32,000 bases of DNA, from IMG/VR virus record IMGVR_UViG_3300045988_188311, positions 8,293 to 40,292 of that record; one strand, given 5' to 3'. This document shows positions 2,385 to 27,684 of this stretch, piece by piece. The notes under the pieces are model-generated. The model searched no databases and was not told where the DNA came from. It saw only the letters and a list, made by a program, of their open reading frames with translations. The position numbers and the translations under genes are program-made. The first letter of the stretch is position 1; each line of letters starts with the position of its first letter. Source of the DNA: a virus.

Positions 2385-2579
2385 ATAGAAATGAATTATG
2401 AAGAAAGGATTAAAGAGTTAATTTCTAAGAATAATAAACTAGGGAAGGTAAATATTAAGCTTAATCAAACGTTAAAAGAAAGAAATGAAACAATTCATAA
2501 TCAAACAAGTGAGATTAAGAAACTGAAAAATAAAGTTGGCGAATTAGAATATAGATTGTATAAGGTATACAGTTCATGA
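2385..2579 (+). CDS. Small coiled-coil protein; start uncertain (ATA 2385 or ATG 2391)
   Basis: The SD AGGAGGTG (2371-2378) is 6 nt from ATA 2385 and 12 nt from ATG 2391. The track's GTG 2376 lies inside the SD. Confidence 0.5.
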   Translation: MEMNYEERIKELISKNNKLGKVNIKLNQTLKERNETIHNQTSEIKKLKNKVGELEYRLYKVYSS

Positions 2580-2902
2580 GTACATATGAAGATATTAAGA
2601 GACACTTCTTGTGTGAATGCCAATCATACACTTATTATGAACAAAAGATAGCAGAGTTACAAAGGGATGAAGCAATTTATCCTTTAAAAGCCGAGCTATT
2701 CTTGGCTCATGCAGATTACGCAAGAAGAATGAACTACGTAAAAGACAAATTAAGCCAACTTGATGATACAACTAGAACCATGATTGAGTATAGATATATA
2801 AAGGGATTCAGTGCAGAAAAAACATCTAATATTGTAGGTTATGCACGAGAAGAAATTCCACGAAAAATAAATAAGAACTTAAAGAAAGTGCTCACAATGT
2901 GA
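2576..2902 (+). CDS. Late-gene transcriptional regulator, sigma-70 region-4-like (ArpU/RinA-class position)
   Basis: The C-terminal segment TRTMIEYRYIKGFSAEKTSNIVGYAREEIPRKINKNLKKV resembles a sigma region-4 HTH. It is the last gene before the packaging/late block. Confidence 0.55.
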   Translation: MSTYEDIKRHFLCECQSYTYYEQKIAELQRDEAIYPLKAELFLAHADYARRMNYVKDKLSQLDDTTRTMIEYRYIKGFSAEKTSNIVGYAREEIPRKINKNLKKVLTM

Positions 2903-2911
2903 GCATTTTTT
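2890..2911 (+). terminator. Hairpin plus T-run overlapping the regulator's stop codon
   Basis: GCTCACA-A-TGTGAGC (7 bp arms) followed by ATTTTTT. The same 15-mer recurs inverted at 14641. Confidence 0.5.
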
Positions 2912-2913
2912 CA

Positions 2914-2922
2914 TGTAATAAT
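2914..2922 (+). promoter_or_regulatory. Candidate extended -10 promoter for the tRNA
   Basis: TGtAATAAT (TGn plus a 5/6 match to TATAAT) ends 7 nt before tRNA position 1. No good -35. Confidence 0.35.
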
Positions 2923-2928
2923 AACCTT

Positions 2929-3004
2929 AGCAGGATAGAGCAGTAGTAGCTCACTAGTCTTATTAGCTAGAGGTCGAATGGTGCAAATCCTTCTCCTGCA
3001 ACCA
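2929..3004 (+). tRNA. Initiator-tRNA-like tRNA with anticodon UAU (decodes AUA), CCA encoded
   Basis: Hand fold: AGCAGGA UA GAGC AGUAGUA GCUC A CUAGU CUUAUUA GCUAG AGGUC GAA(U)GG UGCAAAU CCUUC UCCUGCA A CCA. The anticodon T2961-A2962-T2963 follows U33. Imperfections: a bulged U in the T stem, G55, U37, and an A1/A72 mismatch. Confidence 0.65.
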
Positions 3005-3086
3005 TGATTACAAAGCCTATGAGCAAGTCCTTTCCGAATTAGATATTAAATACCAACAATTGCATACAATTAGGCTTTTGTATATT

Positions 3087-3111
3087 ACCGAGCGTTTGTC
3101 TCGGTTCTTTT
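3087..3111 (+). terminator. Rho-independent terminator closing the tRNA unit
   Basis: ACCGAG-cgtttgt-CTCGGT followed by TCTTTT. Confidence 0.6.
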
Positions 3112-3129
3112 AATAATAAGGAGGAGAAT

Positions 3130-3711
3130 ATGAATATTGTTGAAAAAAGATTAAATGAGCTAAAGCCTTATGATAATAACCCTAGAATCAATGATGGAGC
3201 AGTGAAATTTGTTAAAAATTCTATTGAGGAATTCGGTTTCAAAGTCCCTATTGTTATTGATAAAAATGGAGTGATTGTTGCAGGTCATACACGATATAAA
3301 GCTAGTCAAGAATTAGGCTTAGAAACTGTTCCTTGCGTGGTTGCAGATGATTTAACAGATGAGCAAGTAAAAGCGTTTAGAATTGCAGATAATAAAACGG
3401 CAGAAAAAGCGTCTTGGGATTTAGACGCATTAAAAACAGAAATGGAAGAGCTAGAAGAAATTGACGGAATCGATATGAGAGAATTCGGATTCGGCGATTT
3501 TGAAATTAGTGCATTAACTGAGGATATGGAAGCAGAAGGATATGACAACGAGCTTATGGATGCATTTAGCGAACATTCAGAAGAAATGCTAAAAAAGCAA
3601 CGTGTAATCATTACATATGAAACAGAGGAAGAACAACTATTCTTAGAGAAACTATTGCAGGTAACTGAATTGAAAGTGTGCTACGACATCGAGGAATTAA
3701 TGCATGAATAA
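3130..3711 (+). CDS. ParB-like nuclease domain protein with acidic C-terminal half
   Basis: LKPYDNNPR, VPIVID.NGVIVAGHTRYKA and FRIADNK match ParB/Srx-fold N-terminal domain motifs. Consensus SD AAGGAGGAG. Confidence 0.8.
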   Translation: MNIVEKRLNELKPYDNNPRINDGAVKFVKNSIEEFGFKVPIVIDKNGVIVAGHTRYKASQELGLETVPCVVADDLTDEQVKAFRIADNKTAEKASWDLDALKTEMEELEEIDGIDMREFGFGDFEISALTEDMEAEGYDNELMDAFSEHSEEMLKKQRVIITYETEEEQLFLEKLLQVTELKVCYDIEELMHE

Positions 3712-4465
3712 CATCTATTATGCAATAGCTAGTTACCATAGGCCAAAATGTAAAACGTATTACGCACTAAAAGAATGTGGAATTGAAGATGAAAGAATTG
3801 TTATTAGCTTAAATGATTCAAATGATTTCAAAACTTATATTGAAGCATTAGGAAGTCAAGCTCAAATCATTACTAGGTGTGGAAATAACGTAGCTTCGAA
3901 TAGAAATAATATTCTAAATTATTTTGAAAATGGCGCAAAAATCATCTTGCTAGATGATGATATAAGAGATTTTAGGAAATGGGAAGAAAAGCAAGGAAAT
4001 AAATGTGGAACGCAGAAAAAAATCACTGAGTTGGATAAGACATTTAATGAGGTATTCTCATTTATGCAAAAGAACAATATTCACTTCATGGGATGTCTAC
4101 CCACAACCAATAATATGAATATAGCTAGCTATATTAAGAAAGGTGAAACATATTCATTCAATACACTCGTACAAGGTGGCTTGTGTTTTGTTATTAAAAG
4201 TGAAGAAATCAAATTTGATGAGAAATGGGATATGTTAGAGGATTATGAATTGAATCTAAGGATGATTAGGCAAGGATATATCATAGCTAGAGTAAATAAC
4301 ATTGTGCCAAATAAATCTTTAATGGGAAAGGAAAAAGGCGGAATGTATGACAGATACCAAAGAGGAGAACAAGAACTATGGCTTAGACGCCTAGTAAAGA
4401 AATATCCGGATATGGTAACAAAAAAAGATAGAACAGTATTGTTGAAAAGGAAATGGAGGATATAA
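3704..4465 (+). CDS. GT-A fold (family-2-like) glycosyltransferase, putative
   Basis: ASNRNNILNYF..GAKIILLDDDI supplies a DxD motif, and EDYELNLR follows later. This spacing is typical of GT2-type enzymes. The assignment is by motif only. Confidence 0.5.
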   Translation: MNNIYYAIASYHRPKCKTYYALKECGIEDERIVISLNDSNDFKTYIEALGSQAQIITRCGNNVASNRNNILNYFENGAKIILLDDDIRDFRKWEEKQGNKCGTQKKITELDKTFNEVFSFMQKNNIHFMGCLPTTNNMNIASYIKKGETYSFNTLVQGGLCFVIKSEEIKFDEKWDMLEDYELNLRMIRQGYIIARVNNIVPNKSLMGKEKGGMYDRYQRGEQELWLRRLVKKYPDMVTKKDRTVLLKRKWRI

Positions 4466-4466
4466 G

Positions 4467-5774
4467 GTGAATAAAATCAGTGAGACATATCAATCACCAA
4501 GATGGACAGGAGAAATCGCAGATTGCTCATTACCGGTAACATTTGATACATATTCCAACTGTTCATTTGGGTGTGTTTATTGTTTTAGCCAATATCAAAG
4601 AGGTATTGGTGCAAGTAAAGAAGCATATCTTAATAAAGATGTGAAATGTATCAATGTTGAGAAGTGTAAAAAGATTTTCAGTGGAGAAGATACAAAATCA
4701 CAATTCTATAAATACATTAAAGACAGACGTCCTATTCAATATGGTGGTTTATCAGACCAATTCGACGGATATGAAAAGAAATATGGTAAAACCTATGAAA
4801 TGCTCAAGTATTTGAAATCTATTAACTATCCTATCTGCTTTAGTACGAAATCGGCATGGGTATTTAATGACCCTAAATATCAAGAATTGTTCAAAGGCGC
4901 AGACAATTGGAATGTTAAGTTTAGTATCATCACACTAGATGAAGAGGACGCAAGAAAAATCGAAGTAGGTGTGCCAAGCCCAAGAAAAAGACTTGAAGCA
5001 ATGAAAAAGTATACTGAACTATCAAAAGGTGGTGCAACTTTAAGATTGCGTCCATTTATTGTAGGAGTATCAGATAAAACCTATCTAGATTTAATTAGAG
5101 AAGCCAAAAAGGCAGGAGCAACGGCAGTTACTACGGAGTTCTTTTGCTTAGAAATGCGTTCTATTAAACAAGCTAAGGAGCATTATGGTGTGATTAGTGA
5201 ATGTGCAGGATTTGATATTGTAGATTTTTATAGAAAACATTCAAATGGAAGTGGATATTTAAGACTGAATAGAAAAGTAAAGGCTAAATACATTCAAAAG
5301 ATGAAAGAGCTATGTGATGAATTAGGCATGAGATTCTATGTATCAGACGCACACTTTAAAGAATGCTCAAATAACTGTTGTTGTTGCGCATTAGACAAGA
5401 ATTGGGATTACTCAAGAGGGAATTTCAGTGGAGCTTTACAAATTGCGAAGAAACATGGAAGAGTACATTGGAAAGATATTGAAAAGGATATGTACTTCTT
5501 AGATTTTCAATTTAATAAAGCTATTGGGTTCAACACTAACTCATCAGAGAATAGAGCAAAATTCAAAGGAATGACAATGAAAGATTATCTCCATTATTTA
5601 TGGAATTCACCAAAAGCAGGACAATCACCTTATAAGATTTTTGAAAAGGTTCTAAAGCCTGTAGGATTTGATGAAAATAATGACATCATTTACGAATATG
5701 ATAATTCAGTAACATTCTTAAAAAGAACAGAGGAGATTACAGAACTTGAAACAGAAGAATCAAGACATGTCTAG
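4467..5774 (+). CDS. Radical SAM enzyme (SPL/'DNA photolyase'-like class), with an extra Cys cluster
   Basis: CSFGCVYC is a CX3CX2C radical-SAM motif near the N-terminus. A second cluster, KECSNNCCCCALD, follows. GTG start behind GGAGGA. Confidence 0.8.
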   Translation: MNKISETYQSPRWTGEIADCSLPVTFDTYSNCSFGCVYCFSQYQRGIGASKEAYLNKDVKCINVEKCKKIFSGEDTKSQFYKYIKDRRPIQYGGLSDQFDGYEKKYGKTYEMLKYLKSINYPICFSTKSAWVFNDPKYQELFKGADNWNVKFSIITLDEEDARKIEVGVPSPRKRLEAMKKYTELSKGGATLRLRPFIVGVSDKTYLDLIREAKKAGATAVTTEFFCLEMRSIKQAKEHYGVISECAGFDIVDFYRKHSNGSGYLRLNRKVKAKYIQKMKELCDELGMRFYVSDAHFKECSNNCCCCALDKNWDYSRGNFSGALQIAKKHGRVHWKDIEKDMYFLDFQFNKAIGFNTNSSENRAKFKGMTMKDYLHYLWNSPKAGQSPYKIFEKVLKPVGFDENNDIIYEYDNSVTFLKRTEEITELETEESRHV

Positions 5775-6259: not shown

Positions 6260-7593
6260 TGACTAGAACGATTCCTTGGGGGAAATTTTCAGATAAACAT
6301 AAGAAATATATTAAGACCGCCCTAAATTACAAACAAAGTGTAGCAGAAGGAGCGGTACGAAGTGGTAAAACGATTGACCACTGCATAATCTTTTCAATGT
6401 ATTTAGAAACATGTGAAGATAAAATACATTTAGCGAGTGGGTCAAGCTTACCGAATGCGAAATTAAATATAGGCGATTGCAATGGTTTCGGCTTAGAGCA
6501 TATCTTTCGTGGTCGGTGTCGTTGGGGTAAATACAAATCAAACGAAGCGCTATTTATTCAAACAAAGACAGGCGAAAAGATTGTTATATTTACAGGCGGT
6601 GGGAAGTCCGATTCATATAAGAGCATATTAGGTAACTCATATGGTGGATGGATAGCCACTGAAATAAATGAACATTATGATTGTGAGGATTCTAGAACAA
6701 GCTTTATCAAGGTAGCGATGGCAAGACAGATTGCAAGCGTACACCCATTTACATTATGGGATTTAAACCCATCAAACCCAAATGCAGACATCTATAAGAA
6801 TTACATAGATAAATTTATGGGATTAGATTGGTACAGATATGAGCACTTCAATATTTTTGACAACGCTACAATGAGCCAAGAAAGAATCGAAGAAATCAAA
6901 AACAAATATGACATGAATTCAGTATGGTACAAGCGAGATATTCTAGGGGAAAGAATGGTTGCCGAAGGACTTGTGTTCCCTTATTTTGCTAATGATTGTA
7001 AGCCTTACCTATTCAAATATCAAAGTCTAAAAGAAAAGATGAAGGAAGAAGGGAAAAGGTTCAGTCATTTAATCATAGGTGTTGACTTTGGAGACAACGG
7101 CTCGAAATATTCGTGGCACTTAACAGGATTCACGAACGATTGGGATTATATGTGGGCACTTGATGAAGGAGATATGGCAAAGTCAAATGCAATAGACGCA
7201 ACAAAGTTCTGCAAAGCATTTGTAAGGTTCTATAAGCGTTGTATTGAATGTTATGGATATGTCGAATGGATATTTTGCGATAGTGCTTCTAATACACTTA
7301 TAAACACGCTTAGAGCTTATTTTTACGCCGAAGGATTAGACGGAAGTATAATTGCACCGGTTAAGAAGAATGAGCTAACTGACCGTCCTATAACGGTTGA
7401 TAGCTTACTTGTTACAGGAAGGTTAAAGATAGAAGAACATTGTAAGAATTTAATAAATGCATTGAGCGAATTAGTATGGGATGAAAAGAAAGACATCCCA
7501 AAAGATGAGAACGTAAACAATATTAATGATGATTGGGATTCGTTCTGCTATACATTTATCACACATAGCAAGTATATAGATTTAAGGAGGTAA
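6256..7593 (+). CDS. Terminase large subunit
   Basis: Walker A motif GAVRSGKT and a C-terminal nuclease-type region. ATGA overlap with TerS. Size and position are typical. Confidence 0.9.
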   Translation: MMTRTIPWGKFSDKHKKYIKTALNYKQSVAEGAVRSGKTIDHCIIFSMYLETCEDKIHLASGSSLPNAKLNIGDCNGFGLEHIFRGRCRWGKYKSNEALFIQTKTGEKIVIFTGGGKSDSYKSILGNSYGGWIATEINEHYDCEDSRTSFIKVAMARQIASVHPFTLWDLNPSNPNADIYKNYIDKFMGLDWYRYEHFNIFDNATMSQERIEEIKNKYDMNSVWYKRDILGERMVAEGLVFPYFANDCKPYLFKYQSLKEKMKEEGKRFSHLIIGVDFGDNGSKYSWHLTGFTNDWDYMWALDEGDMAKSNAIDATKFCKAFVRFYKRCIECYGYVEWIFCDSASNTLINTLRAYFYAEGLDGSIIAPVKKNELTDRPITVDSLLVTGRLKIEEHCKNLINALSELVWDEKKDIPKDENVNNINDDWDSFCYTFITHSKYIDLRR

Positions 7594-7596
7594 GAA

Positions 7597-9000
7597 ATAG
7601 AAACATCTAACACACGTAGACCGTGGTTTCAAAATTACCTAAACGACAGAGGGTATTATGTAGATACAAACGCAATTGAGATTATTGAATTGTGCAATAA
7701 GTGGTATACAAATACCGAAACAGAATTTCATACGGCATACACCTTAAATAACGAGGAATACACGCTCGACAAGACAGACTTTGCAAAGCGGTTATGCGAG
7801 GATGACGCAAACTTAATTGAAATCCTAGATATAAACGCAACAGAGGACAGTGTTACAAATGATATTATTTCAGACATTCTAACAAAGAATAGGTTTGATG
7901 TAATGTATAGGAAACAAGTTGAGCAGATGTCTGCAAATGGTACGGTAGGAGCTTATGTGACGGTATCAAATGCCGAGATTTATGAAGATGGTTCATTCAG
8001 TGGAGGAGAAATCAGAATCAATTATTGTGATTCAATGAATATCCTACCGTTAACTGTTATCAATGATGAAATTGTGGAAGTTGCTTTCGTTGGGGTAAAT
8101 TACGAAAAACTGAAAAAAGTATATGTCATGGTCATGTTCTTAAAAGGACAAGACGAAAGATATATTGCAGAAACACATTACTTTAAAGAAACAGGAGAAG
8201 AAATAAAAGACCGTGCTCAGATTGTTCAATTAGATGTGATTAAGCCGTTTGCAATTATGAGAAACGCAAAGGTAAACAACTTACAAATGCAAGGTTACGG
8301 CTTACCGAAGATTTGGAGCGCAATCGCTCCTTTGAAAACAATTGATTTAACAATGACAATGTGGAATCGTGATTTGTTGAAGTCCGATAAAATCGTTCTT
8401 GTGAATGAAGCATTAATGCAGAAAGACGAGAATGGAAAGATTAAGATGAATCCACAAATGAAAAAGATTTTTGTTCAGTTAGGTAGGGATAAGCTACCGG
8501 AAGAAAAAGCTTTATGGCAAGAATACAATCCAACAGTAAGAACGGCAGAAGTTGTTCAATCGTTAGAAACTGCATTAAGTATTCTATCAATGATGTTTGG
8601 ATTCGGTACAAAAAAATATACGTTTGAAAGTGGAAGAATTGTAACGGCTACAGAATATATCGGTGAGAATCAAGACGCAATGAAAGAAGTAAATTCACAA
8701 CGTAAAGAATCTACTGCATATATTCAAGATATTATTCAAGCGATAGCATACTTTTATGAATTAACACAAGGCAGAAAGCTTAATATCAATTCATTAGACA
8801 TTGCTATTGATTATGACGATACATATATTGAGGACAAGCAAAGCACTGCAGAATCGTTAAGAAATGACGCATTAACATTTGATATTCCAAGATTAAAGAT
8901 TATGTATTTCATGAAGCAATACGGCTTTACAGAAGAAGAAGCAACGGAATTGTTGAATGAAGAAATTCAAGATGATGGAGAGGGGGATGAAGAAGAATAG
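7597..9000 (+). CDS. Portal protein (ATA start)
   Basis: Typical size, position after TerL and acidic C-terminus. The frame opens at 7594. The SD AAGGAGG (7584-7590) lies 6 nt before ATA 7597. The track's TTG 7690 has no SD. Confidence 0.8.
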   Translation: METSNTRRPWFQNYLNDRGYYVDTNAIEIIELCNKWYTNTETEFHTAYTLNNEEYTLDKTDFAKRLCEDDANLIEILDINATEDSVTNDIISDILTKNRFDVMYRKQVEQMSANGTVGAYVTVSNAEIYEDGSFSGGEIRINYCDSMNILPLTVINDEIVEVAFVGVNYEKLKKVYVMVMFLKGQDERYIAETHYFKETGEEIKDRAQIVQLDVIKPFAIMRNAKVNNLQMQGYGLPKIWSAIAPLKTIDLTMTMWNRDLLKSDKIVLVNEALMQKDENGKIKMNPQMKKIFVQLGRDKLPEEKALWQEYNPTVRTAEVVQSLETALSILSMMFGFGTKKYTFESGRIVTATEYIGENQDAMKEVNSQRKESTAYIQDIIQAIAYFYELTQGRKLNINSLDIAIDYDDTYIEDKQSTAESLRNDALTFDIPRLKIMYFMKQYGFTEEEATELLNEEIQDDGEGDEEE

Positions 9001-9803
9001 CAACTACATATTTTCCGTTCGTATCAAGGAGCGGTGATAGATTAGTATTATATGACGCATTCAGAAGATTGTTTTCAAGCTATTTCACGAATGGTGTATT
9101 CATAGATGATTCTAGTTCAGACCATTTACGAGTTGTTAAAGCTCAAGGATTGACATTAACAGTTAAAGCAGGACGAGCGAATATTAACGGAGCATTCTAT
9201 TGGCAGAAAGATGACGAAACCATAACGCTAGAGCAGAATAGCGCTACTAAAAGCTACAATATTATTCTTAGATTGAATGACAATGACGCATACAGAAATA
9301 TTACATTAGTAGCAAGTGATATCAATGATGGAATTACAAGAAGTGATTCTATCTACGATTTAGTGTTGGCTACGGTTACAGTAACAGGTAATGCAGGCGA
9401 AATTAAAGGTTCAGATATTACTGATACAAGATTAGATTCAACACGTTGTGGCGCAGTTACGAGCGCTATTAAGAGCGTGCAATCGTTGGATTTATTCACT
9501 CAAGTAACGGAGCTATTCAAAGAAATCAAGGCTCAGAATGAATCTGAAATGAATGAAAATAGAACAGAGTTCAACGATTGGTTTGAAACTGTAAAAGATA
9601 CATTAGATAAGAATACGGCAGGTAAGTTATCGAACAGAATTTCAAACATTGAAAATATGATTATGGAGAACCATTTCACTACGATTCTATTAACAGAAGA
9701 TGGAACACTAGTGGATGAGAATGGGCATGAGATTTTAGCAGATTGGGCTTATGAAGTTGAATCCGGTGAAGTAGGTACAGATTGGACTTACAAAGTGAAA
9801 TAG
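8997..9803 (+). CDS. Fibre/baseplate-associated structural protein (ATA start overlapping the portal stop)
   Basis: With the ATA start the N-terminus reads ATTYFPFVSRSGDRLVLYDAFRRLFSSYFTNGV. This motif is one I recall from N-termini of Firmicute phage fibre-type proteins, and it is lost if the track's TTG 9069 is used. Confidence 0.6.
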   Translation: MATTYFPFVSRSGDRLVLYDAFRRLFSSYFTNGVFIDDSSSDHLRVVKAQGLTLTVKAGRANINGAFYWQKDDETITLEQNSATKSYNIILRLNDNDAYRNITLVASDINDGITRSDSIYDLVLATVTVTGNAGEIKGSDITDTRLDSTRCGAVTSAIKSVQSLDLFTQVTELFKEIKAQNESEMNENRTEFNDWFETVKDTLDKNTAGKLSNRISNIENMIMENHFTTILLTEDGTLVDENGHEILADWAYEVESGEVGTDWTYKVK

Positions 9804-9814
9804 AGGTGATACAT

Positions 9815-11820: not shown

Positions 11821-11821
11821 C

Positions 11822-11959: not shown

Positions 11960-12009
11960 ATAAGAATATAGTTGATTAATTGAATATATAAAAAAAGGAG
12001 GAATAGAGA

Positions 12010-12921: not shown

Positions 12922-12930
12922 GAGGAAGCT

Positions 12931-13278: not shown

Positions 13279-13279
13279 T

Positions 13280-15332: not shown

Positions 15333-16202
15333 ATACCAAATCAAATTGCATTAGCTAAAACGTATGTCTCAAATTTGGATGAGGTATATAAGTTAGCTTC
15401 AGTTACAGGTGATTTAAACGCAAACGCTACAATGGTACGAGCCGGAGCAAATGCCAAAGAAATCATCTATCCACAAATTTCAGTCAAAGGGTTAGGAAAC
15501 TATGATAGAAATAGTGGTTATACAGGCAACTCAGTTAAGTTAGAATGGAAAACTGCTACATTCGACTATGATAGAGGAACTAAAATCTCAGTTGATACAC
15601 AAGATAACGCAGAATCAATGAATATTGCATTCGGTATGGCAGGAGCAGAATTAATGCGTACAAAGGTAGCACCGGAAGCGGACGCTTACACATTCGCTAA
15701 AATTGCAGGCACAACAGGAATCACAAAGGTTTCAGAAGATTATACAGGTGCAGAAGAGTTCTTGAGTGCATTGTTAACGGCTATCACTAAAATGGATGAG
15801 GATGAAGTTCCTAGCGAACAACGTATCTTGTATTCAACACCAACATTATTAAATAGCGTTAAGGCGTTGGACACTTATAAATCTCGTGAAGCTTTACAAG
15901 GATTTGCAAAAGTTGTTCCTGTACCTGCTAGCCGTTTCTATACAAAAATCAAATTGTTGAGTGGAAAAGATACAGAGTTAGAAGGCGGATACGAAAAAGC
16001 GGAGGATGGACACGTAATCAACTTCTTGATTGTTCATAAACCTGCCGTTATGAAATGGGATAAACACACCGTTTCAAATGTAATTCCGGCAAGCAATAAC
16101 ATTGAATCAGATTCAGATGTACTAAAATATCGTAAATATGGAATCGTTGATGTATACCAAAATAAGGTAGCAGGTGTTTACTTATCTGCTAGTGCTAAGT
16201 AA
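15333..16202 (+). CDS. Major capsid protein (ATA start)
   Basis: Position and size fit. The frame opens at 15330. The SD AAGGAGG (15317-15323) lies 9 nt before ATA 15333. The track's TTG 15375 has no SD. Confidence 0.8.
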   Translation: MPNQIALAKTYVSNLDEVYKLASVTGDLNANATMVRAGANAKEIIYPQISVKGLGNYDRNSGYTGNSVKLEWKTATFDYDRGTKISVDTQDNAESMNIAFGMAGAELMRTKVAPEADAYTFAKIAGTTGITKVSEDYTGAEEFLSALLTAITKMDEDEVPSEQRILYSTPTLLNSVKALDTYKSREALQGFAKVVPVPASRFYTKIKLLSGKDTELEGGYEKAEDGHVINFLIVHKPAVMKWDKHTVSNVIPASNNIESDSDVLKYRKYGIVDVYQNKVAGVYLSASAK

Positions 16203-16674: not shown

Positions 16675-17090
16675 TAGGATTCTTTGAAGATTCAATCACA
16701 CTTGTAAATCACTACTATGACACATTGACAAGAGAAGATAGATTTCAAGCTTCTATTCTTGATAAATGTATGTGGAGACAATCAACTGTTAGAACTGCAA
16801 ACGGTAATATTCTGAGCATAGCCACATCCACAAATATTACCATTCTATATCGTGATGGATATGTTGAACCTTACGCATATGCGAAACTTTCAAATGATGA
16901 GAAACAAAAACACTTTACATTAAATACAGATAAAACTGATTTCGTATTCTTTGGAGAAGTCGAAGAAGATTTATCTAACATCAAGGCAATTAACGAAGCA
17001 AAAAAGAAATACAAATGGACAACCGTTCAAAGCGTAACAGATTGTACTAATGTCGATATGTTGAAGCATTGGGAGGTTGTCGGTCAATAG
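16671..17090 (+). CDS. Head closure / connector protein (putative)
   Basis: ATGA overlap start at 16671 is preferred over the track's TTG 16626. Call rests on synteny. Confidence 0.5.
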   Translation: MIGFFEDSITLVNHYYDTLTREDRFQASILDKCMWRQSTVRTANGNILSIATSTNITILYRDGYVEPYAYAKLSNDEKQKHFTLNTDKTDFVFFGEVEEDLSNIKAINEAKKKYKWTTVQSVTDCTNVDMLKHWEVVGQ

Positions 17091-17449
17091 GGATTAAAGT
17101 TAAACTTGATGTTAAATCACTTCAAGAATTTAAACAATCAAGAGGACTTGAAGAACGTGGGCGTGTGCAACAAATGATTGATTCTGAAGTGATTAGGCTT
17201 ATGACACCTTACACGCCTAGAGATACAGGAGCATTAATTAACTCGGCTACAAGAAATACTCAAATCGGAAGTGGATTAGTAAAGCAAGGTGGACCAAGTG
17301 CCCCTTATGCTAGACGGTGGTATTACAACAAAGAGGGTGCTCATTTCGTAGGAGGTAAAACAGACCATTGGTTTGAAAAAGCTATGCGAAATGGTGGAGC
17401 AGAAACAATCTTAAAAAAAGCACAACAAATGATAGGAGACGGAGAATGA
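17087..17449 (+). CDS. HK97 gp10-like head-tail joining protein (ATA start overlapping the upstream TAG)
   Basis: The N-terminus GIKVKLDVKSLQEFKQ fits this family. GGGAGG (17071-17076) lies 10 nt before ATA 17087. The track's TTG 17069 lies upstream of the SD. Confidence 0.6.
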   Translation: MGIKVKLDVKSLQEFKQSRGLEERGRVQQMIDSEVIRLMTPYTPRDTGALINSATRNTQIGSGLVKQGGPSAPYARRWYYNKEGAHFVGGKTDHWFEKAMRNGGAETILKKAQQMIGDGE

Positions 17450-17865
17450 CAGTATCAAAAGCATTGATTCAATGGCTTTACGGCTATGGAAATATACAGA
17501 TAGATGAACGTATTGAAACGGATGTTTTAGCACAACAAGCTATCTCTTATGCGTTATACAAAGAACCTAACGCAATTGTAGATACATACATTGACGGCTC
17601 TCAAATGCGTACAGAATACTACACGTTTCTAGCTCGTAGGAATACACAGATTGAAGTTGAAAGGCAAGATAACAATGTTTTTCTAGAAGAATTAGAAAAT
17701 TGGATTGATGAAAAGAATTTAAACGGAGAATTGCCACAACTAGACGGAAACAGATATTGCGAGGATGTTTCCGTTTCAAGTGGTTTATATCTATACACGA
17801 ATGAGGATAGTCAAGCAGTATATGCGTTAACTATTCAAATTAAATACAGAAAGGAGCTTAATTAA
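17446..17865 (+). CDS. Tail completion / tail terminator protein (putative)
   Basis: Synteny. ATGA overlap start with the GGAGACGGAG context. Confidence 0.5.
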   Translation: MTVSKALIQWLYGYGNIQIDERIETDVLAQQAISYALYKEPNAIVDTYIDGSQMRTEYYTFLARRNTQIEVERQDNNVFLEELENWIDEKNLNGELPQLDGNRYCEDVSVSSGLYLYTNEDSQAVYALTIQIKYRKELN

Positions 17866-18371
17866 TAGCAACTCAAGGAACTGAAATAACTACAGGGCAG
17901 ACAGTCAAAAAGTATATGATTGGATTGTTCTTAGAAATGGGAACAGGTTACAAGCGAATTAAGAAGTCTACAACTTTAGATATTTCGTTTAACGGTGAAA
18001 CTGAAACGTATGACTTTATCGCAGATAAGAACCCAACAGAATCATTAAAGAGTTATTCACCTCAGATTTCGCAAGATTTAACAATGATTAAAGGCGAAGA
18101 TGACTTTGAATATATTTACGAACAAATGATGAAATCCGTTCCAAACAATGAAGAAGTAAACACAAAAGCTTTAATCGTCTTCATGTTTGACGGAGACAAG
18201 ACAAAAGGCTATAAAGCATGGGAAGTTGACTCAAAATTAATTTTCGACACGTTGAGTGGTGTTGATTCAAAAATCAACTTCAACATTAACTTTGCAAGCG
18301 ATATTCGTGTCGGTATTGCAAAGGTAGCAGATGGAACAGTAACATTTACAGAAGGCACATCAGAAGTATAA
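17865..18371 (+). CDS. Major tail (tube) protein (ATA start)
   Basis: AAAGGAG (17850-17856) lies 8 nt before ATA 17865, giving ATQGTEITTGQTVKKYMIG. The track's ATG 17916 lacks an SD. Position before the chaperones and tape measure fits. Confidence 0.7.
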   Translation: MATQGTEITTGQTVKKYMIGLFLEMGTGYKRIKKSTTLDISFNGETETYDFIADKNPTESLKSYSPQISQDLTMIKGEDDFEYIYEQMMKSVPNNEEVNTKALIVFMFDGDKTKGYKAWEVDSKLIFDTLSGVDSKINFNINFASDIRVGIAKVADGTVTFTEGTSEV

Positions 18372-19332: not shown

Positions 19333-21912
19333 ATATCAGACGGAACATTAAAGTTTGAAACAAAGATTGATACAAGTGGTCTAGAGAATGGTATTAAATC
19401 TGTAAAGGTTGTATCAAGTGAAGCAACAAATGCTATTAAAGATACTTCAAAAGCGATTGATAAGCTAGGCTCTGATGGTTCAAAAGCACCACCAAAAATC
19501 AAAGAAAAACTTAAAGATTTAAACGAAGAGCAAAAGAATACACAAACAGAAACGCAAGAAACAGGTTCTAAATTTGATGTATTTAAACAAGTAGGAAACA
19601 GTGCCTTAGAATCAATTCAAGGTGGATTTGATGGACTATTAGGAAAGATTCAGAACATTAGTCCGGAAGCTTCTGCAATCACTGAAACCTTAACAGGATT
19701 AGGCGTAGGAGGTGTCGTTGGTGTTACTGCCGTAGCAGGAGCCGTCGGTGGTATGGCACTAGCTATTAAGACAGGTGTTAACCAAGCTATGGAATTAGAT
19801 GACGCTATGGCAAAGTTTCAAGCTCAGACAGGTGCTTCAAGTAATGAAATGAGCAAATTTAAAAACATTGCTCGTGATGTTTGGTCTAATAATTTCGGTG
19901 AAGATATTTCAGATGTAGCCGATATGATGGGCCGTGTCAAACAACAAATGCAAGGCATAAGTGATATTGATTTAAAGAATGTTACAGAAGACTTGATTAC
20001 ATTAAGAGACGTTTACGGCATGGATGAAAATGAGACTCTTAGAGGTGCAAAGCAATTAATGGAACAGTTCGGAATTAGTTCCGAAAAAGCTTTTGACCTT
20101 ATGGCAAAAGGTGCTCAGAATGGTTTGAATTATTCCGATGAATTAGGAGACAATATCGCAGAATACGCAGGTAAATTCAAGCAAGCAGGATATTCGGTAG
20201 AAGAATATTTCCAAACTATGACAAATGGTGTAAAAGGCGGTTCTTATAACCTTGATAAAATGCAAGACGCAGTAAATGAAATTACTACACGAATGTCAGA
20301 CGGAACTATTGAAAAATCATTAGATAGTTTTAACGATAAAACAAAAGAAGTTTTTCAGGCATATAAAGAAGGCGGTGCAACACAGAAAGATGTACAAGAC
20401 GCAATTGTCCAAGATATTAAGGAAACAACAAATCAACAAGAAGCATTAAATAAAGCAAGCATTGCATTCGGCACAATGGGAGAAGATTTCAACCTTAAGT
20501 TTATTACATCCTTATCATCTGTAGGTGATGAATATAACAATGTAGCCGGAACAATGGATAAGGTTAAAGCTATTGCAAATGGTGGATTAAAGAACGCTTT
20601 AAGCGGATTAGGCCGTGCATTTCTTGATTCATTTACTCCAATAGGCGAACTTATTACTCCTATTCTTTCCGGTATTATTGGATTGATAACTGTAGCGATA
20701 CAAGGTATTCAACAAGGGTTTGCAAAAGTTGGTGATGTAATTTCAAATGTATTAAGTAAGATTGATACAAGTGGAATTACAGAATTGACAAGTCAAGTTT
20801 CCAAAGTGTTAGCTCCTGCGTTTAAAGAAGTAAAAAAAGCAATTGACGAAATGAAAGTTGCGCTTGAACCTATCGCAAAAGAAATCTTAGGTAAAATTGG
20901 TAACGCAATTCAAAATGTAGTAAACCAAGCTCAAAAGATTCTTAGTGTAGTAGGACCACCAATTCTAGCGATTATCAAAAAGATTATTCAAACGGTAGTT
21001 GGAATGATTCCTGTAATAACATCTATTCTTCAAGTAGTTGGAAGTGTTGTAAGTGGTATCATCTCATTTATTAATACAGTAATTTCTGTTGTAGGAACTG
21101 CAATTGCAACAATACTAGGCTTTATCATGCCTATTGTTCAAATTGTAGCTACAATTGTAGCGAATATTTGGTCTGTAATATTAATAGTTGCGCAGAATAT
21201 TTGGAGCAAAGTCAGTGAAGTAGTAACTGCAATTATTGGATTTGTAAGCAATTTGTTTAAAATAGTTTCGGACATCATAAACAATATTTGGAGTAAGATT
21301 CAAGATTCCATGAACAAGGTAAGAGACAAGGTTCAAGGCGTTGTCGACAATATTAATAAATATTTCAATAATGTTAAGGATACCGTTTCGGATGTATTCA
21401 ATGGTATTTGGTCTAAAGTTCAAGGTGTAATGGATAATGTAGGTAATAAAATTTCAAATGTTCTACAAGGAATACAGAATTCATGGAATGGCTTGACAGG
21501 GTTTGTAAGTGGCGTATTTGGTGGAATTGAAGGAGCGGTTAGTTCATTAGTTGGAAGTGTAAAAGGAATGGTAAATGGTGTTATCGGTGGCATTAACGGC
21601 GCTATCGGTATCATCAACAAGATTCCCGGTGTACACATTGGAAGGATTCCAAGACTAGAGCGTGGGGGTGTATTGAAGCGTGGTCAAATCGGTTTATTGG
21701 AAGGTAATGGAGCAGAAGCAGTCGTTCCTTTAGAAAAAAACAAAGCATGGATTCGTGCCGTAGCTAAAGATATGGCTCAAATCATGCCGAGCGTTACAAC
21801 TAATAACAACGGACAAACTATCAATTTCTACAATAAAGCTCAAAGTCCGGATGAAATCGCTAGAATGTTACGTATGCAAGCAAGATATGGATATGGAGGT
21901 GTGGTTCAATAG
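19333..21912 (+). CDS. Tape measure protein (ATA start, 859 aa)
   Basis: The frame is open for 140 codons upstream of the track's ATG 19753. GGAGGTGG (19317-19324) lies 8 nt before ATA 19333. The N-terminus SDGTLKFETKIDTSGLENGIK is TMP-like. Hydrophobic core with IWSKV repeats. Confidence 0.85.
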   Translation: MSDGTLKFETKIDTSGLENGIKSVKVVSSEATNAIKDTSKAIDKLGSDGSKAPPKIKEKLKDLNEEQKNTQTETQETGSKFDVFKQVGNSALESIQGGFDGLLGKIQNISPEASAITETLTGLGVGGVVGVTAVAGAVGGMALAIKTGVNQAMELDDAMAKFQAQTGASSNEMSKFKNIARDVWSNNFGEDISDVADMMGRVKQQMQGISDIDLKNVTEDLITLRDVYGMDENETLRGAKQLMEQFGISSEKAFDLMAKGAQNGLNYSDELGDNIAEYAGKFKQAGYSVEEYFQTMTNGVKGGSYNLDKMQDAVNEITTRMSDGTIEKSLDSFNDKTKEVFQAYKEGGATQKDVQDAIVQDIKETTNQQEALNKASIAFGTMGEDFNLKFITSLSSVGDEYNNVAGTMDKVKAIANGGLKNALSGLGRAFLDSFTPIGELITPILSGIIGLITVAIQGIQQGFAKVGDVISNVLSKIDTSGITELTSQVSKVLAPAFKEVKKAIDEMKVALEPIAKEILGKIGNAIQNVVNQAQKILSVVGPPILAIIKKIIQTVVGMIPVITSILQVVGSVVSGIISFINTVISVVGTAIATILGFIMPIVQIVATIVANIWSVILIVAQNIWSKVSEVVTAIIGFVSNLFKIVSDIINNIWSKIQDSMNKVRDKVQGVVDNINKYFNNVKDTVSDVFNGIWSKVQGVMDNVGNKISNVLQGIQNSWNGLTGFVSGVFGGIEGAVSSLVGSVKGMVNGVIGGINGAIGIINKIPGVHIGRIPRLERGGVLKRGQIGLLEGNGAEAVVPLEKNKAWIRAVAKDMAQIMPSVTTNNNGQTINFYNKAQSPDEIARMLRMQARYGYGGVVQ

Positions 21913-22778
21913 ATGTCAATAAAGTAAGAGTTATTGTCCGTAGGGATGATGGCAAAGAATTTGAAATCGACAACAAAAGATGGAGAATACCATCTAGTGA
22001 CGGATTAGATGGATTTGATTATGTAGCACCTTCATATACTACACAAGACAATGCATTTGGAAATGGTGCTAGATTAATCGGTTCACGTATTCCAACGAAA
22101 GAAAGAAGCGTGAAAGCTATCTTTAAGGGCTCGCTAGAAGAAAAAAGAGAAGAAAGGGAGAAGCTACGGCGCTTCTTCCAATATTCTCATGTCTTTGATG
22201 TAATAGTTGAGTATATGGGAGAAAAGAAATATTGCAGAGGTCGTTTATATGCGTATAGCTTGCCTACTGTTAACATCTACAAAGATTTAGAGCTTAACTT
22301 TACGATTCTATGCACGCAACCTTTATTGCTTTCATTTGATGATTTCGCAAGGAATATCGCAGAAATTGGCGAAGGTTTAGCGTTCAATTTTGAAATACCG
22401 GAAACAGGCGTAAACTTTGGAACATTTACATTCGCTAGAGAAATCTATATTGATAATCAAGGTGATACAGAAACATACTGTAGAGCCGTTATTGAAGCGT
22501 TTGGAGAGGTTACAAATCCAAAACTATTCAACAAAGATAAATATATTCGTGTATTAGATACGCTACACAATGGTGATGTATTAGAAATTGATTTAGTTTC
22601 TGAGCCTATCTCGATTAAAAAGAATGGTGTGAATTGTATTGGCAAAGTTGACAGAACATCATCATTCAATGATATGACAATTCAGTTAGGCGAGAATATC
22701 ATAGGATATACTGCCGACAATGGAGATACGAATCTAGCTTGCACTGTTTACTATAATGAAAGGTATTTAGGTTTATAA
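21909..22778 (+). CDS. Distal tail protein Dit (ATA start overlapping the TMP TAG)
   Basis: The frame is open for 67 codons upstream of the track's GTG 22110. GGAGGTG (21895-21901) lies 7 nt before ATA 21909. Position after the TMP fits. Confidence 0.7.
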   Translation: MDVNKVRVIVRRDDGKEFEIDNKRWRIPSSDGLDGFDYVAPSYTTQDNAFGNGARLIGSRIPTKERSVKAIFKGSLEEKREEREKLRRFFQYSHVFDVIVEYMGEKKYCRGRLYAYSLPTVNIYKDLELNFTILCTQPLLLSFDDFARNIAEIGEGLAFNFEIPETGVNFGTFTFAREIYIDNQGDTETYCRAVIEAFGEVTNPKLFNKDKYIRVLDTLHNGDVLEIDLVSEPISIKKNGVNCIGKVDRTSSFNDMTIQLGENIIGYTADNGDTNLACTVYYNERYLGL

Positions 22779-23806: not shown

Positions 23807-24316
23807 ATAAAAAAGAAAGATGATGGAGGATTTAAGCAAATAGCAAGAAGTATGTATTTTCTAGACAAAATGAATGCAATAGGGGGTGTAGCCGTTGCCG
23901 TATTAACATACGTATTAGGTGAACATTGGTATTTATTCGCATTCTTCTTATTCATGAACGTTGTGGATTACATTACAGGGTGCATGAAATCGGCTATCGC
24001 TCACAAGCTAAACAGTAATAAAGGATGGATTGGAGTCCTTAAAAAGCTAGGATATTGGATTATGATTGTGGTTGCGTTTGCATTCAGTGTATTCTTGGTG
24101 GAAATTGGCGAAATGTTAGGAATTGATTTCCGTGTAACTACATTATTAGGTTGGTTTGTACTAGCTTCTCTATGTATTAATGAGGTGCGTAGTATCATTG
24201 AGAACCTTGTACAATGTGGATATAGCGTCCCTAGTGTATTAACTAAAGGATTAGAAGTAGCAGATAAACTCATTAACGAAGAACAAGACAATGACGACTC
24301 AAGTACCTTGGAATGA
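23807..24316 (+). CDS. Holin, 'toxin secretion/phage lysis' (TcdE-like, holin_4_1) class (ATA start)
   Basis: FFLFMNVVDYITGCMKSAI...SNKGWIGVLKKLGYWIMIVVA plus several TM segments. AAAGGAG (23792-23798) lies 8 nt before ATA 23807. The track's GTG 23798 is inside the SD. Confidence 0.7.
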   Translation: MKKKDDGGFKQIARSMYFLDKMNAIGGVAVAVLTYVLGEHWYLFAFFLFMNVVDYITGCMKSAIAHKLNSNKGWIGVLKKLGYWIMIVVAFAFSVFLVEIGEMLGIDFRVTTLLGWFVLASLCINEVRSIIENLVQCGYSVPSVLTKGLEVADKLINEEQDNDDSSTLE

Positions 24317-26922: not shown

Positions 26923-27684
26923 ATAAATTATCAAAATTTTAAAAAAGCCGTATTAGGCAAAGCGTTCGACATTGACGGATACTATGGTGCGCAGTGTTGG
27001 GACGGATTCGCAAAGTACATGATTGATTTAGGCTATCAAGCTATCCATTGCACGACAAGTAGTTTTGTTAAGGACATTTGGAACAACCGAAAAACAAATG
27101 GTATCTTGAATTATTGCAATGAGGTATCAATCATGCAACCGGGAGACATTGCCGTCTTTAAAGAAGTAGCAGGAGTTACGCCATACAGTCATATTGCAAT
27201 CTTTGATTCTGATATTGACGGAAAGCAAGGATGGTTCTTGGGCCAAAACCAAGGTGGAAAAGGTGGAGCATTCAATTTAATTAAATTGCCTTATTATGCA
27301 ACCTTTGATACTGCGTTTAGACCTAAATGTTTTGCGAATACAGGAGCAGTTAAACCAAGTATTCCACAACCCGTAGAAAAGATTGACCAAATCTTGCACG
27401 CAGGAAGCTACGTAACATCCGTACAAATGAAGATTGGCAATCAAGGATTGAAACAAATCAATAGCGATTTATGCGCATACCTTGCACCATTAGGTGGTTG
27501 GTTTCCGATTCGTTTAGTTGATAAAGTTCGTAATTCTGATGGCTACAATGACAATGTATTGCATACAACAAATGCGATTGTCTATGTTACAAGAATTCGC
27601 GTTGATGAAGTCAACGTACAAAAGAACCTTGCGAAAATCGGTGGAATTTGGGTAAATTGTGTCCCATTAATTGAAGTAGCATAA
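26923..27684 (+). CDS. Endolysin: N-terminal CHAP peptidase/amidase plus C-terminal wall-binding domain (ATA start)
   Basis: DIDGYYGAQCWD supplies the CHAP catalytic Cys context, and YSHIAIF the His. AAGGAGGA (26909-26916) lies 6 nt before ATA 26923. The track's TTG 26899 overlaps the -10 box. Confidence 0.8.
   Translation: MNYQNFKKAVLGKAFDIDGYYGAQCWDGFAKYMIDLGYQAIHCTTSSFVKDIWNNRKTNGILNYCNEVSIMQPGDIAVFKEVAGVTPYSHIAIFDSDIDGKQGWFLGQNQGGKGGAFNLIKLPYYATFDTAFRPKCFANTGAVKPSIPQPVEKIDQILHAGSYVTSVQMKIGNQGLKQINSDLCAYLAPLGGWFPIRLVDKVRNSDGYNDNVLHTTNAIVYVTRIRVDEVNVQKNLAKIGGIWVNCVPLIEVA

Follow-up and report, generated by a model that had tools for sequence, protein, structure and literature searches.

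A phage-encoded, initiator-derived tRNA with a UAU anticodon that probably starts translation of late genes at AUA

The bacterial initiator tRNA-fMet (in E. coli, metZWV/metY) carries a 1x72 mismatch, G2:C71, C3:G70, A73, A11:U24 and G30:C40, which are determinants of formylation, of exclusion from EF-Tu and of entry into the P site; the 1x72 mismatch blocks the use of such a tRNA by EF-Tu in bacteria. Here we report on a tRNA gene at positions 2929 to 3004 of a 32,000-nucleotide stretch of viral DNA, referred to below as the window (positions 8,293 to 40,292 of IMG/VR record IMGVR_UViG_3300045988_188311; G+C 33.5%; the early-to-late part of the siphovirus-type genome of a prophage-like virus). 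To judge by its similarities this tRNA is a descendant of the bacterial initiator, but its anticodon is UAU, and it very probably initiates translation at AUA. This decoding role for a phage-supplied initiator was first proposed in an earlier note made from the letters of the window, and it is now supported by a covariance model, by the initiator ancestry of the tRNA, by ATA starts shared among related phages and by the covariation of CCU anticodons with AGG starts.

Initiators with altered anticodons are known from the laboratory. The RajBhandary and Schulman laboratories reportedly worked with amber initiator tRNA(CUA) and other anticodon mutants of tRNA-fMet. An orthogonal initiator, i-tRNA(AAC), has also been engineered (bioRxiv 10.1101/2021.05.25.445580; 10.64898/2025.12.21.695813). 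As proposed for the window, an altered anticodon alone there makes a non-AUG codon led by a Shine-Dalgarno (SD) sequence a start, and genes become dependent on the tRNA. However, these are laboratory constructs without the scaffold changes U31-G39 and U37 of the phage tRNA, whereas the phage system is natural, conserved across diverged phages and accompanied by up to ten co-evolved starts. Codon reassignment by phages is familiar from stop codons: Borges et al., in 2022, and related work are said to describe suppressor tRNAs and stop-codon recoding of late genes in crAss-like, Lak and other gut phages. There too the codon reassigned by a phage tRNA occurs mostly in late, structural and lysis genes, whose translation is accordingly proposed to depend on that tRNA, but the codon is an in-frame stop and its reader an elongator-type suppressor in the A site, whereas here a start codon would be read in the P site by an initiator-type tRNA and the elongation code is unchanged. 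The open reading frames (ORFs) of the window are open under code 11, leaving no in-frame stop for a suppressor to read.

The UAU anticodon and the AUA start each have precedents of their own. Mycoplasma mobile and other bacteria lacking TilS have an elongator tRNA-Ile(UAU). Elongators of this type have a paired 1:72, a pyrimidine 11:purine 24 pair and A37 and are used by EF-Tu; the phage tRNA shares the anticodon only. Animal mitochondria use one tRNA-Met, whose modified CAU anticodon (f5C34) reads AUG as well as AUA, for initiating and elongating alike; AUA serves as a start as in the phage, but there is no dedicated second initiator with UAU. The tilS-bypass tRNA-Ile(UAU) of Bacillus subtilis resembles the phage tRNA in that its UAU pairs with AUA and is tolerated by a Firmicute; with an unmodified UAU it supports AUA (Ile) decoding in vivo, binding AUA strongly and AUG weakly (PMC3919564). 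Finally, phage-borne copies of initiators that keep both the CAU anticodon and ATG starts are found in Stenotrophomonas phage vB_Sm_QDWS359 (tRNA-fMet), in Javan59 and in several loci of the homologue set used here (L081, L092-L124), and such CAU tRNAs are the likely evolutionary precursor of the UAU tRNA. A search of the full-text literature found no natural non-AUG initiator tRNA, only engineered analogues, in agreement with the earlier note, whose author knew of no described natural example. Within the literature that could be searched, a natural dedicated non-AUG initiator tRNA appears to be new.

The tRNA gene and its initiator ancestry

The gene in question is the following.

2929..3004, plus strand: initiator-derived tRNA, anticodon UAU at 2962-2964, encoded CCA (Rfam tRNA match, covariation, initiator similarity, anticodon/start-codon covariation)

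Read arm by arm, its 76 nt are AGCAGGA UA GAGC AGUAGUA GCUC A CUAGU CUUAUUA GCUAG AGGUC GAA(U)GG UGCAAAU CCUUC UCCUGCA A CCA, and a letter-for-letter rereading found every feature listed for it in the earlier note. The acceptor end has A1xA72, G2:C71, C3:G70 and A73. The D stem GAGC/GCUC includes A11:U24, while the D loop AGUAGUA is without G18. The anticodon loop CUUAUUA gives the anticodon UAU followed by U37, and the T loop UGCAAAU has G55 instead of U55, with a bulged U in the T stem. Rfam model RF00005 matches 2929-3001 over model positions 1-71 of 71 with 48.8 bits (gathering score 29, E = 1e-7), and in this alignment 1:72 is the sole non-standard pair and one base is inserted in the 5' strand of the T stem. 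ARAGORN predicts no tRNA in the whole window, whereas relatives with normal T arms are called tRNA-Ile(tat). The miss is attributable to the aberrant T arm of the window copy (G55, no G18 and the bulge), these being features that the ARAGORN heuristics use. Recognition by tRNA predictors, which had been proposed as a check, thus succeeded with the covariance model and failed with ARAGORN. The minimum-free-energy fold is the cloverleaf, with a z-score of -0.96 that is not informative.

Homologues were collected by pattern scans of IMG/VR and by protein-based retrieval through the portal gene; single loci are identified by L numbers. There are 13 distinct versions of the UAU-family tRNA, and a further one from the L088-L090 lineage. 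In the 13 variants 99.2% of the stem cells of the cloverleaf are paired and compensatory double changes occur in 13 of 20 pairs, values reached by none of 500 shuffles, and slid registers were paired in 38-54% of cells only. Two versions of the anticodon stem, ACUAGU/GCUAG and GUCGGU/GCCGA, are found even within the near-identical sub-clade of the window, and they lie three fully compensated pairs apart. The odd T arm is specific to this sub-clade and is retained across ~40 related contigs, its bulged base being U or C depending on the variant, whereas the close relative L070 has a normal T arm (GGAGG-UUCAAAU-CCUUC) and a normal G18G19. The joint change of A18 and G55 relative to L070 suggests a compensated tertiary pair. 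Several cautions voiced in the earlier note are therefore partly resolved: G55, A18 and the T-stem bulge are traits of a sub-clade, and G30:C40, the one canonical anticodon-stem pair kept by the window copy, is invariant, while U37 and U31-G39 are conserved throughout the UAU family. Taken together, the pairing and its compensation indicate that 2929-3004 encodes a real, constrained tRNA. The exact tRNA pattern gave 0 matches in species-representative genomes, and the only genome match for the UAU clade, Amedibacillus sp. YH-ame6, was reached through the portal protein. A search of INPHARED with 2400-3600 returned a ParB-like gene only, at ~72% identity, and no close phage.

In E. coli the nearest relatives of the tRNA are initiator genes. 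By BLAST, the best full-length match of the L070 variant is to genes annotated tRNA-Met in 5426 of 5426 complete E. coli genomes, and the match that was inspected is among three tandem copies adjoining amiC, which is the metZWV initiator locus. The L062 variant, compared with deposited phages, matches genes annotated tRNA-fMet or tRNA-Met. In the sister variant v2 the D arm and the variable loop are identical to those of E. coli tRNA-fMet, and the anticodon arm differs solely at 31, 34, 37 and 39, changing GGGCUCAUAACCC to GGUCUUAUUAGCC. Identity to bacterial tRNA-fMet is 68-77%, and in addition to the determinants listed above the two share the GAGC/GCUC D stem, the AGGUC variable loop and, in the phage relatives, the UUCAAAU T loop.

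The initiator determinants are retained across the family. Position 1 is A, C or G and never U opposite an invariant A72, so that 1x72 is unpaired in every version; G2:C71, C3:G70 and A73, the formyltransferase determinants, are found in 13 of 13 variants (the 3' side being preset by the search pattern for some); A11:U24, the purine 11:pyrimidine 24 pair of initiators, is likewise present in all 13, and also in L061, L062 and L085-L091, which were retrieved by protein; and G30:C40 is again found in 13 of 13. The departures lie in the anticodon arm, where UAU at 2962-2964 stands in place of CAU, U37 in place of A37 and U31-G39 in place of G31:C39. The three consecutive G:C pairs of tRNA-fMet (29:41, 30:40 and 31:39) appear as A29:U41, G30:C40 and U31-G39 in the window and as G:C, G:C and U-G in its relatives. 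The window copy further differs from tRNA-fMet in G55, the missing G18 and the T-stem bulge, and, unlike tRNA-fMet, the phage tRNA is encoded by a virus and matched by ATA start codons. The fMet scaffold that had been noted from the letters is thus borne out by the metZWV match, the tRNA-fMet and tRNA-Met matches in phages and the comparison of the v2 arm, which together indicate that the tRNA is a descendant of a bacterial initiator and not of an elongator tRNA-Ile.

ATA starts of late genes and the anticodons of related phages

Nine late genes of the window, or ten with the one at 2385, have ATA as their start codon, and in the nine no ATG, GTG or TTG could serve instead. They are listed here with the SD sequence and its spacing where these are clear, and with the count of close relatives in which ATA is kept.

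7597..9000, plus strand: portal, ATA start (AGGAGGT, 5 nt, ATA); homologue N-termini; ATA in 38/38 relatives
8997..9803, plus strand: head (minor capsid) protein, ATA overlapping the portal stop (ATAG); PHROG 1220 from residue 3; ATA in 37/37 relatives
15333..16202, plus strand: major capsid protein, ATA start (AGGAGG, 9 nt, ATA); PHROG 422; ATA in 33/33 relatives
17087..17449, plus strand: head-completion or minor head protein, ATA overlapping the upstream stop (ATAG); PHROG 556; ATA in 31/31 relatives
17865..18371, plus strand: putative major tail protein (tail tube), ATA overlapping the upstream TAA (TAATA); PHROG 3099; ATA in 20/20 relatives
19333..21912, plus strand: tape-measure protein, ATA directly after an in-frame TGA (AGGAGGT, 10 nt, ATA); ATA in 27/27 relatives
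21909..22778, plus strand: Dit (distal tail protein), ATA overlapping the tape-measure stop (ATAG); PHROG 33
23807..24316, plus strand: holin-like protein, ATA start (AGGAG, 8 nt, ATA); PHROG 199
26923..27684, plus strand: endolysin, ATA start (AGGAGG, 7 nt, ATA); endolysin PHROGs align from residue 2
2385..2579, plus strand: possible tenth ATA start (GGAGGTGG, 5 nt, ATA); ATA in 30/30 relatives though the upstream bases vary

Starts were counted as ORF-initial codons lying 4-11 nt 3' of a strong SD sequence. This census gives ATG 12 times and ATA eight times in the window, with ATT and ATC found only directly after ATG. Counted by ORF (at least 100 codons), eight lack a canonical start but carry ATA at a suitable distance from a strong SD, against 0-1 in the controls, and no ATA-only ORFs were found on the minus strand of the window. 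All clear ATA starts fall within 7597-26923, from portal to endolysin, and are thus concentrated in late, structural and lysis genes; the sole candidate among the early genes is the one at 2385, whose frame also has an ATG two codons further on and which is therefore ambiguous.

Protein comparisons place the N-termini at the same codons. In the portal gene the nearest in-frame ATG, GTG or TTG lies 31 codons downstream of ATA 7597, yet homologue N-termini start upstream of that TTG (7690), distant homologues starting with M begin at query residues 4-8, and ATA 7597 aligns with the ATG of control phages. The capsid gene has an in-frame TAA two codons upstream of its ATA; residue 3 of its product aligns to position 3 of PHROG 422, and its N-terminus, (I)PNQIALAK, corresponds to MPNSITLFK in L081. 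Similarly, (I)ATQGTEITTGQ of the tail protein at 17865 aligns with MATSGTEVAVGQ of L084, and the N-terminus of Dit (21909) with the M-start Dit of L083 and L084. In general, PHROG profiles begin aligning at residues 2-3 of the ATA-start translations. The SD is weaker (GAGGGGG) at the head protein gene at 8997. The junctions between genes follow a familiar pattern, the three ATAG overlaps and the one TAATA being analogues of ATGA and TAATG. ATA is kept at every locatable site (seven sites in 38 close relatives, from 20/20 up to 38/38), with no reversion to ATG. What had been noticed by eye, that many late genes start with ATA, is thus upheld by the SD census, by the N-termini of homologues and profiles and by conservation, all of which indicate that the ATA starts of the late genes are real.

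Public annotations do not reflect these starts. The closest database clusters of the portal are truncated calls of 436 aa and 365 aa; in the public protein sets (P0001, P0003) the portal cluster, of 1406 sequences, has 436 aa instead of 467. The capsid of L061 is likewise called with 257 aa instead of 290, and the calls in L062 are N-truncated in the same way. We attribute the N-truncated calls of portal, capsid, tape-measure and other proteins in NCBI and metagenome sets to gene callers, which disallow ATA starts.

Further observations concern the sequence around the starts. The gene at 12010-12921 begins with ATG in the window and with ATA in two close relatives (among L023-L060), so that ATG and ATA starts appear to interconvert in the population. 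In the window, L061, L062, L087 and L089 the base before the start is A in 25/30 ATA starts and 40/87 ATG starts (p = 5e-4), and TTAATA and TGAATA are recurring contexts of ATA starts; in the CCU loci described below, A precedes AGG starts in 34/44 cases against 94/212 (p = 1e-4). This enrichment could reflect pairing with U37, giving a four-base start, or merely the stop codons that adjoin or overlap the starts. Some CCU tRNAs have A37 or C37, and many of the A bases at -1 belong to adjacent or overlapping stops.

The same association is found in diverged phages. The earlier note had proposed a search of related phages for co-occurrence of the tRNA with ATA starts, and this is what they have. 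In loci with portals 55-61% identical to that of the window (L061, L062, L085-L091; L061 is part of the Amedibacillus sp. YH-ame6 genome) the same UAU tRNA is found between a sigma-like regulator gene and terS, and the portal, capsid, tail tube and tape-measure genes start with ATA; in L061, L062 and L087 terS is ATA-started too. In contrast, relatives that lack the UAU tRNA (L083, L084) or whose version is CAU (L081) show ATG at the orthologous codon, and their ATA-only ORFs number 0-1.

For the tape-measure gene the comparison was extended to every locus in which the codon before the conserved motif (A/S)DG(S/T)L.F(D/E)T could be located (n = 30), with tRNAs taken from ARAGORN and Rfam calls.

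Phage tRNA UAU: tape-measure start ATA, 6/6 loci
Phage tRNA CCU: tape-measure start AGG, 14/14 loci
Phage tRNA CAU or none: tape-measure start ATG, GTG or TTG, 10/10 loci

The start codon is consistent with the phage anticodon in 30 of 30 loci, and the genes align codon for codon, with ATA, ATG or AGG followed by (A/S)DG(S/T)L. Several of the ATA and AGG codons directly follow an in-frame stop, which excludes initiation further upstream in the same frame. If the resident initiator-type tRNA decodes the start, its anticodon and the start codon are expected to change together, which is otherwise hard to explain.

The CCU loci are mostly Lachnospiraceae prophages, including one of Roseburia lenta NSJ-9. 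Their tRNA lies between head-morphogenesis and scaffold genes, and the AGG of the tape-measure gene follows an SD sequence, often right after an in-frame stop. Examples are the following.

L115: CCU tRNA at 6392-6465, AGG tape-measure start at 11482
L264 (Roseburia lenta NSJ-9): CCU tRNA at 13610-13680, AGG tape-measure start at 18371
Further CCU/AGG loci: L260, L265, L270, L278, L279, L281-L283, L285, L287, L288, L299

In two of these loci a further RNA was called near the tRNA. In L283, a Lachnospiraceae prophage, a skipping-rope RNA (RF02924, 51 bits) lies at 3434-3530, ~350 nt upstream of the CCU tRNA, and in L279 ARAGORN calls a second, 92-nt 'tRNA-Thr(agt)' at 13823-13914, right after the CCU tRNA, which may be spurious or intron-containing.

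Proposed transcription, decoding and purpose

The surroundings of the tRNA gene comprise these elements.

2576..2902, plus strand: putative sigma-like regulator of late transcription, the gene immediately preceding the tRNA unit (PHROG 36, Sigma70_r4)
2889..2911, plus strand: terminator-like hairpin TGCTCAC-AAT-GTGAGCA (hairpin 2889-2905), then T6 (terminator scan and direct reading)
2914..2922, plus strand: extended -10-like element TGTAATAAT, that is TG-T-AATAAT, a 5/6 match to TATAAT (direct reading)
3087..3113, plus strand: intrinsic terminator closing the tRNA unit (hairpin 3087-3105; terminator scan)

The product of 2576..2902 has a weak match to PHROG 36 'transcriptional regulator' (E = 8e-4) and one to Pfam Sigma70_r4 (E = 0.008) that is below the cutoff; its orthologues in L062 and L081 have weak Sigma70_r4 matches as well, and the gene has the same position in all UAU lineages. 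The palindromic hairpin at 2889-2905 was assigned to the minus strand by the terminator scan, and the T6 on the plus strand was read directly; the element is kept in at least 22 relatives and putatively insulates the tRNA from the upstream operon. The -10-like element TGTAATAAT, kept in close relatives, ends 6 nt before A1, so that transcription could start at or next to A1; no -35 element for the unit was found in a scan of the window. A spacer of 82 nt (3005-3086) separates the tRNA from the closing terminator, which is followed by the SD and ATG (3130) of the next gene. The layout of terminator, tRNA and terminator is repeated with unrelated sequence in L061, L062, L087 and L089, which have hairpin and T-run elements 5' of the tRNA and terminator-equivalent hairpins 3' of it. 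The description of the gene as its own unit between the regulator and the late genes therefore holds for the terminators and the position; the TGnAATAAT box is a single extended -10-like match and not a repeated motif. As a late-promoter box common to several genes it was rejected, since the window has 4 matches to TGNAATAAT where 5.6 would be expected.

Between the tRNA and the terminase the window holds three genes (3130-5774) coding for a ParB_N protein (3130-3711), a TET-associated glycosyltransferase (TAGT; 3704-4465) and a weakly radical-SAM-like protein (4467-5774), which look like a DNA hypermodification module. L083 has a related set of ParB_N, TAGT and UDP-glucose dehydrogenase genes.

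In the mechanism that we propose, the tRNA would be made from a separate transcription unit (terminator, extended -10, tRNA, terminator) where early and late genes meet, and be charged and formylated by host enzymes; no phage-encoded synthetase, formyltransferase or initiation factor was found among the window genes scanned. The retained features of the acceptor and D stems would direct formylation, exclusion from EF-Tu and entry into the P site, and IF2 would bring the tRNA to 30S subunits placed by strong SD sequences, where it would pair with the AUA that stands in for AUG at the head of nine or ten late genes. Transcription, charging, formylation and P-site use are steps that we infer; for formylation, IF2 binding, P-site entry and rejection by EF-Tu the agreement of start codon and anticodon in 30 of 30 loci is indirect support.

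Several points weigh against initiation by this tRNA. Its U37 is unusual in any tRNA, and U34 should disfavour the methionyl-tRNA synthetase (MetRS). The determinants of the E. coli isoleucyl-tRNA synthetase (IleRS), namely C4:G69, U12:A23, C29:G41 and t6A37, are absent, and with MetRS disfavoured as well charging is uncertain. The window copy keeps one of the three canonical G:C pairs of the anticodon stem and its third pair is a U-G in reversed orientation; in E. coli, however, G30:C40 alone is sufficient, and natural initiators of the au/GC/gu type exist (PMC5389676). The same copy has G55, a bulged T stem and no G18 and is rejected by ARAGORN, and these aberrant T and D arms could make for low efficiency. 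Some of the invariant positions (T8, A9, G10, A11, G30-C40 and G70-A76) were preset by the search patterns for some members of the family, but the same features are found in L061, L062 and L085-L091, for which no tRNA pattern was used. In addition, several late genes (terminase, scaffold, tail chaperones) retain ATG, so that dependence on the phage tRNA would be partial.

Isoleucine is the better guess for the amino acid attached, with methionine possible. The guess is based on the U34 effect on MetRS, on precedents among anticodon mutants and on the UAU tRNA of B. subtilis. Schulman, RajBhandary and colleagues reportedly found that mutants of tRNA-fMet with Ile, Val and Phe anticodons initiate with those amino acids in E. 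coli.

As to purpose, AUA could act as a private start codon that locks or times the translation of late genes, some of whose functions are toxic: the host initiator reads AUA poorly, so that efficient synthesis of virion and lysis proteins would be conditional on the phage tRNA. We regard such a regulatory role as conceivable and put it forward tentatively. It is weakened by the promoter, which looks constitutive, since an extended -10 without obvious regulation suggests that the tRNA is expressed in lysogens too. Escape from initiator-targeting nucleases, insulation from host shut-off and addiction to the module could be other purposes.

The first of these is rather unlikely, although it is compatible with the decoding mechanism and concerns purpose only. 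In this account the tRNA is a replacement initiator that survives a nuclease or toxin directed against cellular tRNA-fMet, reading AUA and, by U-G wobble, AUG, and the ATA starts are secondary. VapC-type toxins cut at the anticodon stem-loop, and the positions at which the tRNA departs from the canonical arm (31, 34, 37 and 39) lie close together, about the anticodon loop and the pair that closes it. The CAU initiator tRNAs of sister phages have altered loop flanks (AUCAUGU, UUCAUGC, UUCAUAC), and U31-G39 occurs in ~28/37 non-CAU and 0/36 CAU initiator-like tRNAs among the matches listed in a scan described in the next section. Phage tRNAs have also been proposed to escape anticodon nucleases through loop mutations (PMC10264068). 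Yet escape would need neither an anticodon change nor nine rewritten start codons, the same architecture exists with CCU, which cannot read AUG, and no candidate nuclease or toxin was identified in scans of the window genes. Since an unmodified UAU reads AUG weakly (PMC3919564), late genes that start with ATG would still need the host initiator.

That the gene is an ordinary elongator tRNA-Ile(UAU) supplementing rare AUA, with the ATA starts read inefficiently by the host initiator or through coupling, is very unlikely. Phages often carry tRNAs for rare codons, of which AUA and AGG are classic examples, the anticodon is indeed UAU, ARAGORN labels the relatives tRNA-Ile(tat), and several ATA starts overlap or abut upstream stops in an arrangement that favours re-initiation. 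However, such an elongator has a paired 1:72, a pyrimidine 11:purine 24 pair and a purine at 37 (t6A37), where the phage tRNA has the 1x72 mismatch, A11:U24 and U37. The mismatch is kept with three different bases at position 1, the purine 11:pyrimidine 24 pair and the whole sequence are of the initiator type, and position 37 is U, not the A usual in elongators for ANN codons. Coupling alone cannot explain the match of start and anticodon in 30 of 30 loci, nor the ATA starts that follow intergenic gaps (capsid at 15333, endolysin at 26923). A role in codon supply was rejected: internal ATA is not enriched relative to relatives without the tRNA, its share of Ile codons being 25-34% in other UAU phages and 28-31% in the tRNA-less relatives. 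Inside the genes of the window no Ile codon is rarer than ATA (12% of Ile codons, 8.7 per 1000 codons), and this low share at 34% G+C may reflect avoidance of spurious internal initiation or the codon bias of the host.

It is extremely unlikely that the gene is a decaying pseudogene or the remnant of an integration site, with the ATA-start ORFs expressed in some other way. The failure of ARAGORN, G55, the bulged T stem, the missing G18 and the folding z-score of -0.96 would fit decay, but the gene has its full length, CCA included, and lies inside the phage between the regulator and the packaging genes, its conservation is compensatory even within the aberrant sub-clade, the joint change to A18 and G55 suggests a compensated tertiary pair, and the ~40 related contigs with the aberrant arm retain every locatable ATA start. 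A changed genetic code with AUA as Met, the tRNA serving initiation and elongation, is scarcely credible: AUA means Met and is a start codon in several mitochondrial codes, and the tRNA derives from a tRNA-Met, but the 1x72 mismatch argues against a role in elongation, and AUA as Met was rejected on the portal, where internal ATA, like ATT and ATC, stands opposite I (65%) or V (17%) of homologues but not opposite M.

A probable wider class of phage initiator tRNAs

Initiator-like tRNAs with U37 were sought throughout IMG/VR, and the counts that follow refer to the matches listed (L126-L245). There are at least 73 distinct cloverleaf-compatible sequences, nearly all with the 1x72 mismatch and A11:U24. 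Their anticodons are CAU (36), GAC (14), CCU (10) and AAC (6), with CGU, UAU, CAG, UAC, CUU, ACU and GGG found once each. Example loci are given here.

L143: minus strand, 4363
L180: minus strand, 2667
L229: plus strand, 2367
L138: plus strand, 3396

In loci that use SD sequences, the codon that fits the phage anticodon is found next to the SD as the first one in long ORFs: 16 ORFs have AGG where the tRNA is CCU, and CTG and ACG are used in one locus each, with CAG and CGU tRNAs respectively. SD sequences are largely missing from loci with GAC or AAC and from most of those with CAU, which makes an SD-based start census uninformative there; GTT 'starts' noticed in these SD-poor loci were rejected, as they lie inside the tRNA genes themselves. 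The reassigned tRNAs have a common scaffold, G30-U31 / N-U-anticodon-U-A / G39-C40, and the distribution of U31-G39 (~28/37 non-CAU, 0/36 CAU) marks it as belonging to tRNAs whose anticodon has been reassigned.

The tRNA of the window is therefore probably one member of a widespread and undescribed class of anticodon-reassigned phage initiator tRNAs, which would constitute natural orthogonal initiation systems. As proposed, and with the same confidence, the class comprises the anticodons UAU, CCU, CAG, CGU and possibly GAC, AAC and others, matched by late-gene starts at ATA, AGG, CTG and ACG. Many members are likely to have the scaffold of 1x72 mismatch, A11:U24, G30:C40, U31-G39 and U37, and the hosts are probably gut Firmicutes, whose phages and prophages would include those of the cultured Roseburia lenta NSJ-9 and Amedibacillus sp. 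YH-ame6.

Some phage initiators that keep CAU occur in the same genomic setting. Streptococcus phage Javan59 (L309 9001-9073; MK448817.1 20081-20153) and also Javan74, prophages of Streptococcus anginosus, have an unannotated tRNA(CAU) with C1xA72 and A11:U24 just upstream of terS, the same position as that of the window tRNA. In L081 (7652-7725) and L092-L124, whose portals are 47-50% identical, a CAU initiator tRNA lies ~3.7 kb downstream of the portal start; the anticodon stem of these tRNAs is GGG:CCC, the flanks of the loop are unusual (AUCAUGU, UUCAUGC, UUCAUAC) and CCA is not encoded. In place of the anticodon, L123 (loop UUCGCUG) and L301 read CGC.

One consequence concerns annotation. 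The ATA starts expose a systematic error by which genes are truncated or missed, as in the portal cluster of 1406 sequences that starts 31 codons late. The tRNAs also offer natural experiments on what an initiator needs, with G30:C40 alone of the three G:C pairs, a U31-G39 closing pair and U37, and, if our reading is true, evolved pairs of orthogonal initiator and start codon for synthetic biology. If confirmed, this would be the first natural dedicated non-AUG initiator tRNA, as far as could be established. For the biology of these phages it would mean that start-codon reassignment is a viral strategy of gene control, a new layer in which a tRNA gates the translation of virion and lysis proteins, and that a virus can privately redefine 'start' in parallel to the stop-codon recoding already known from phages.

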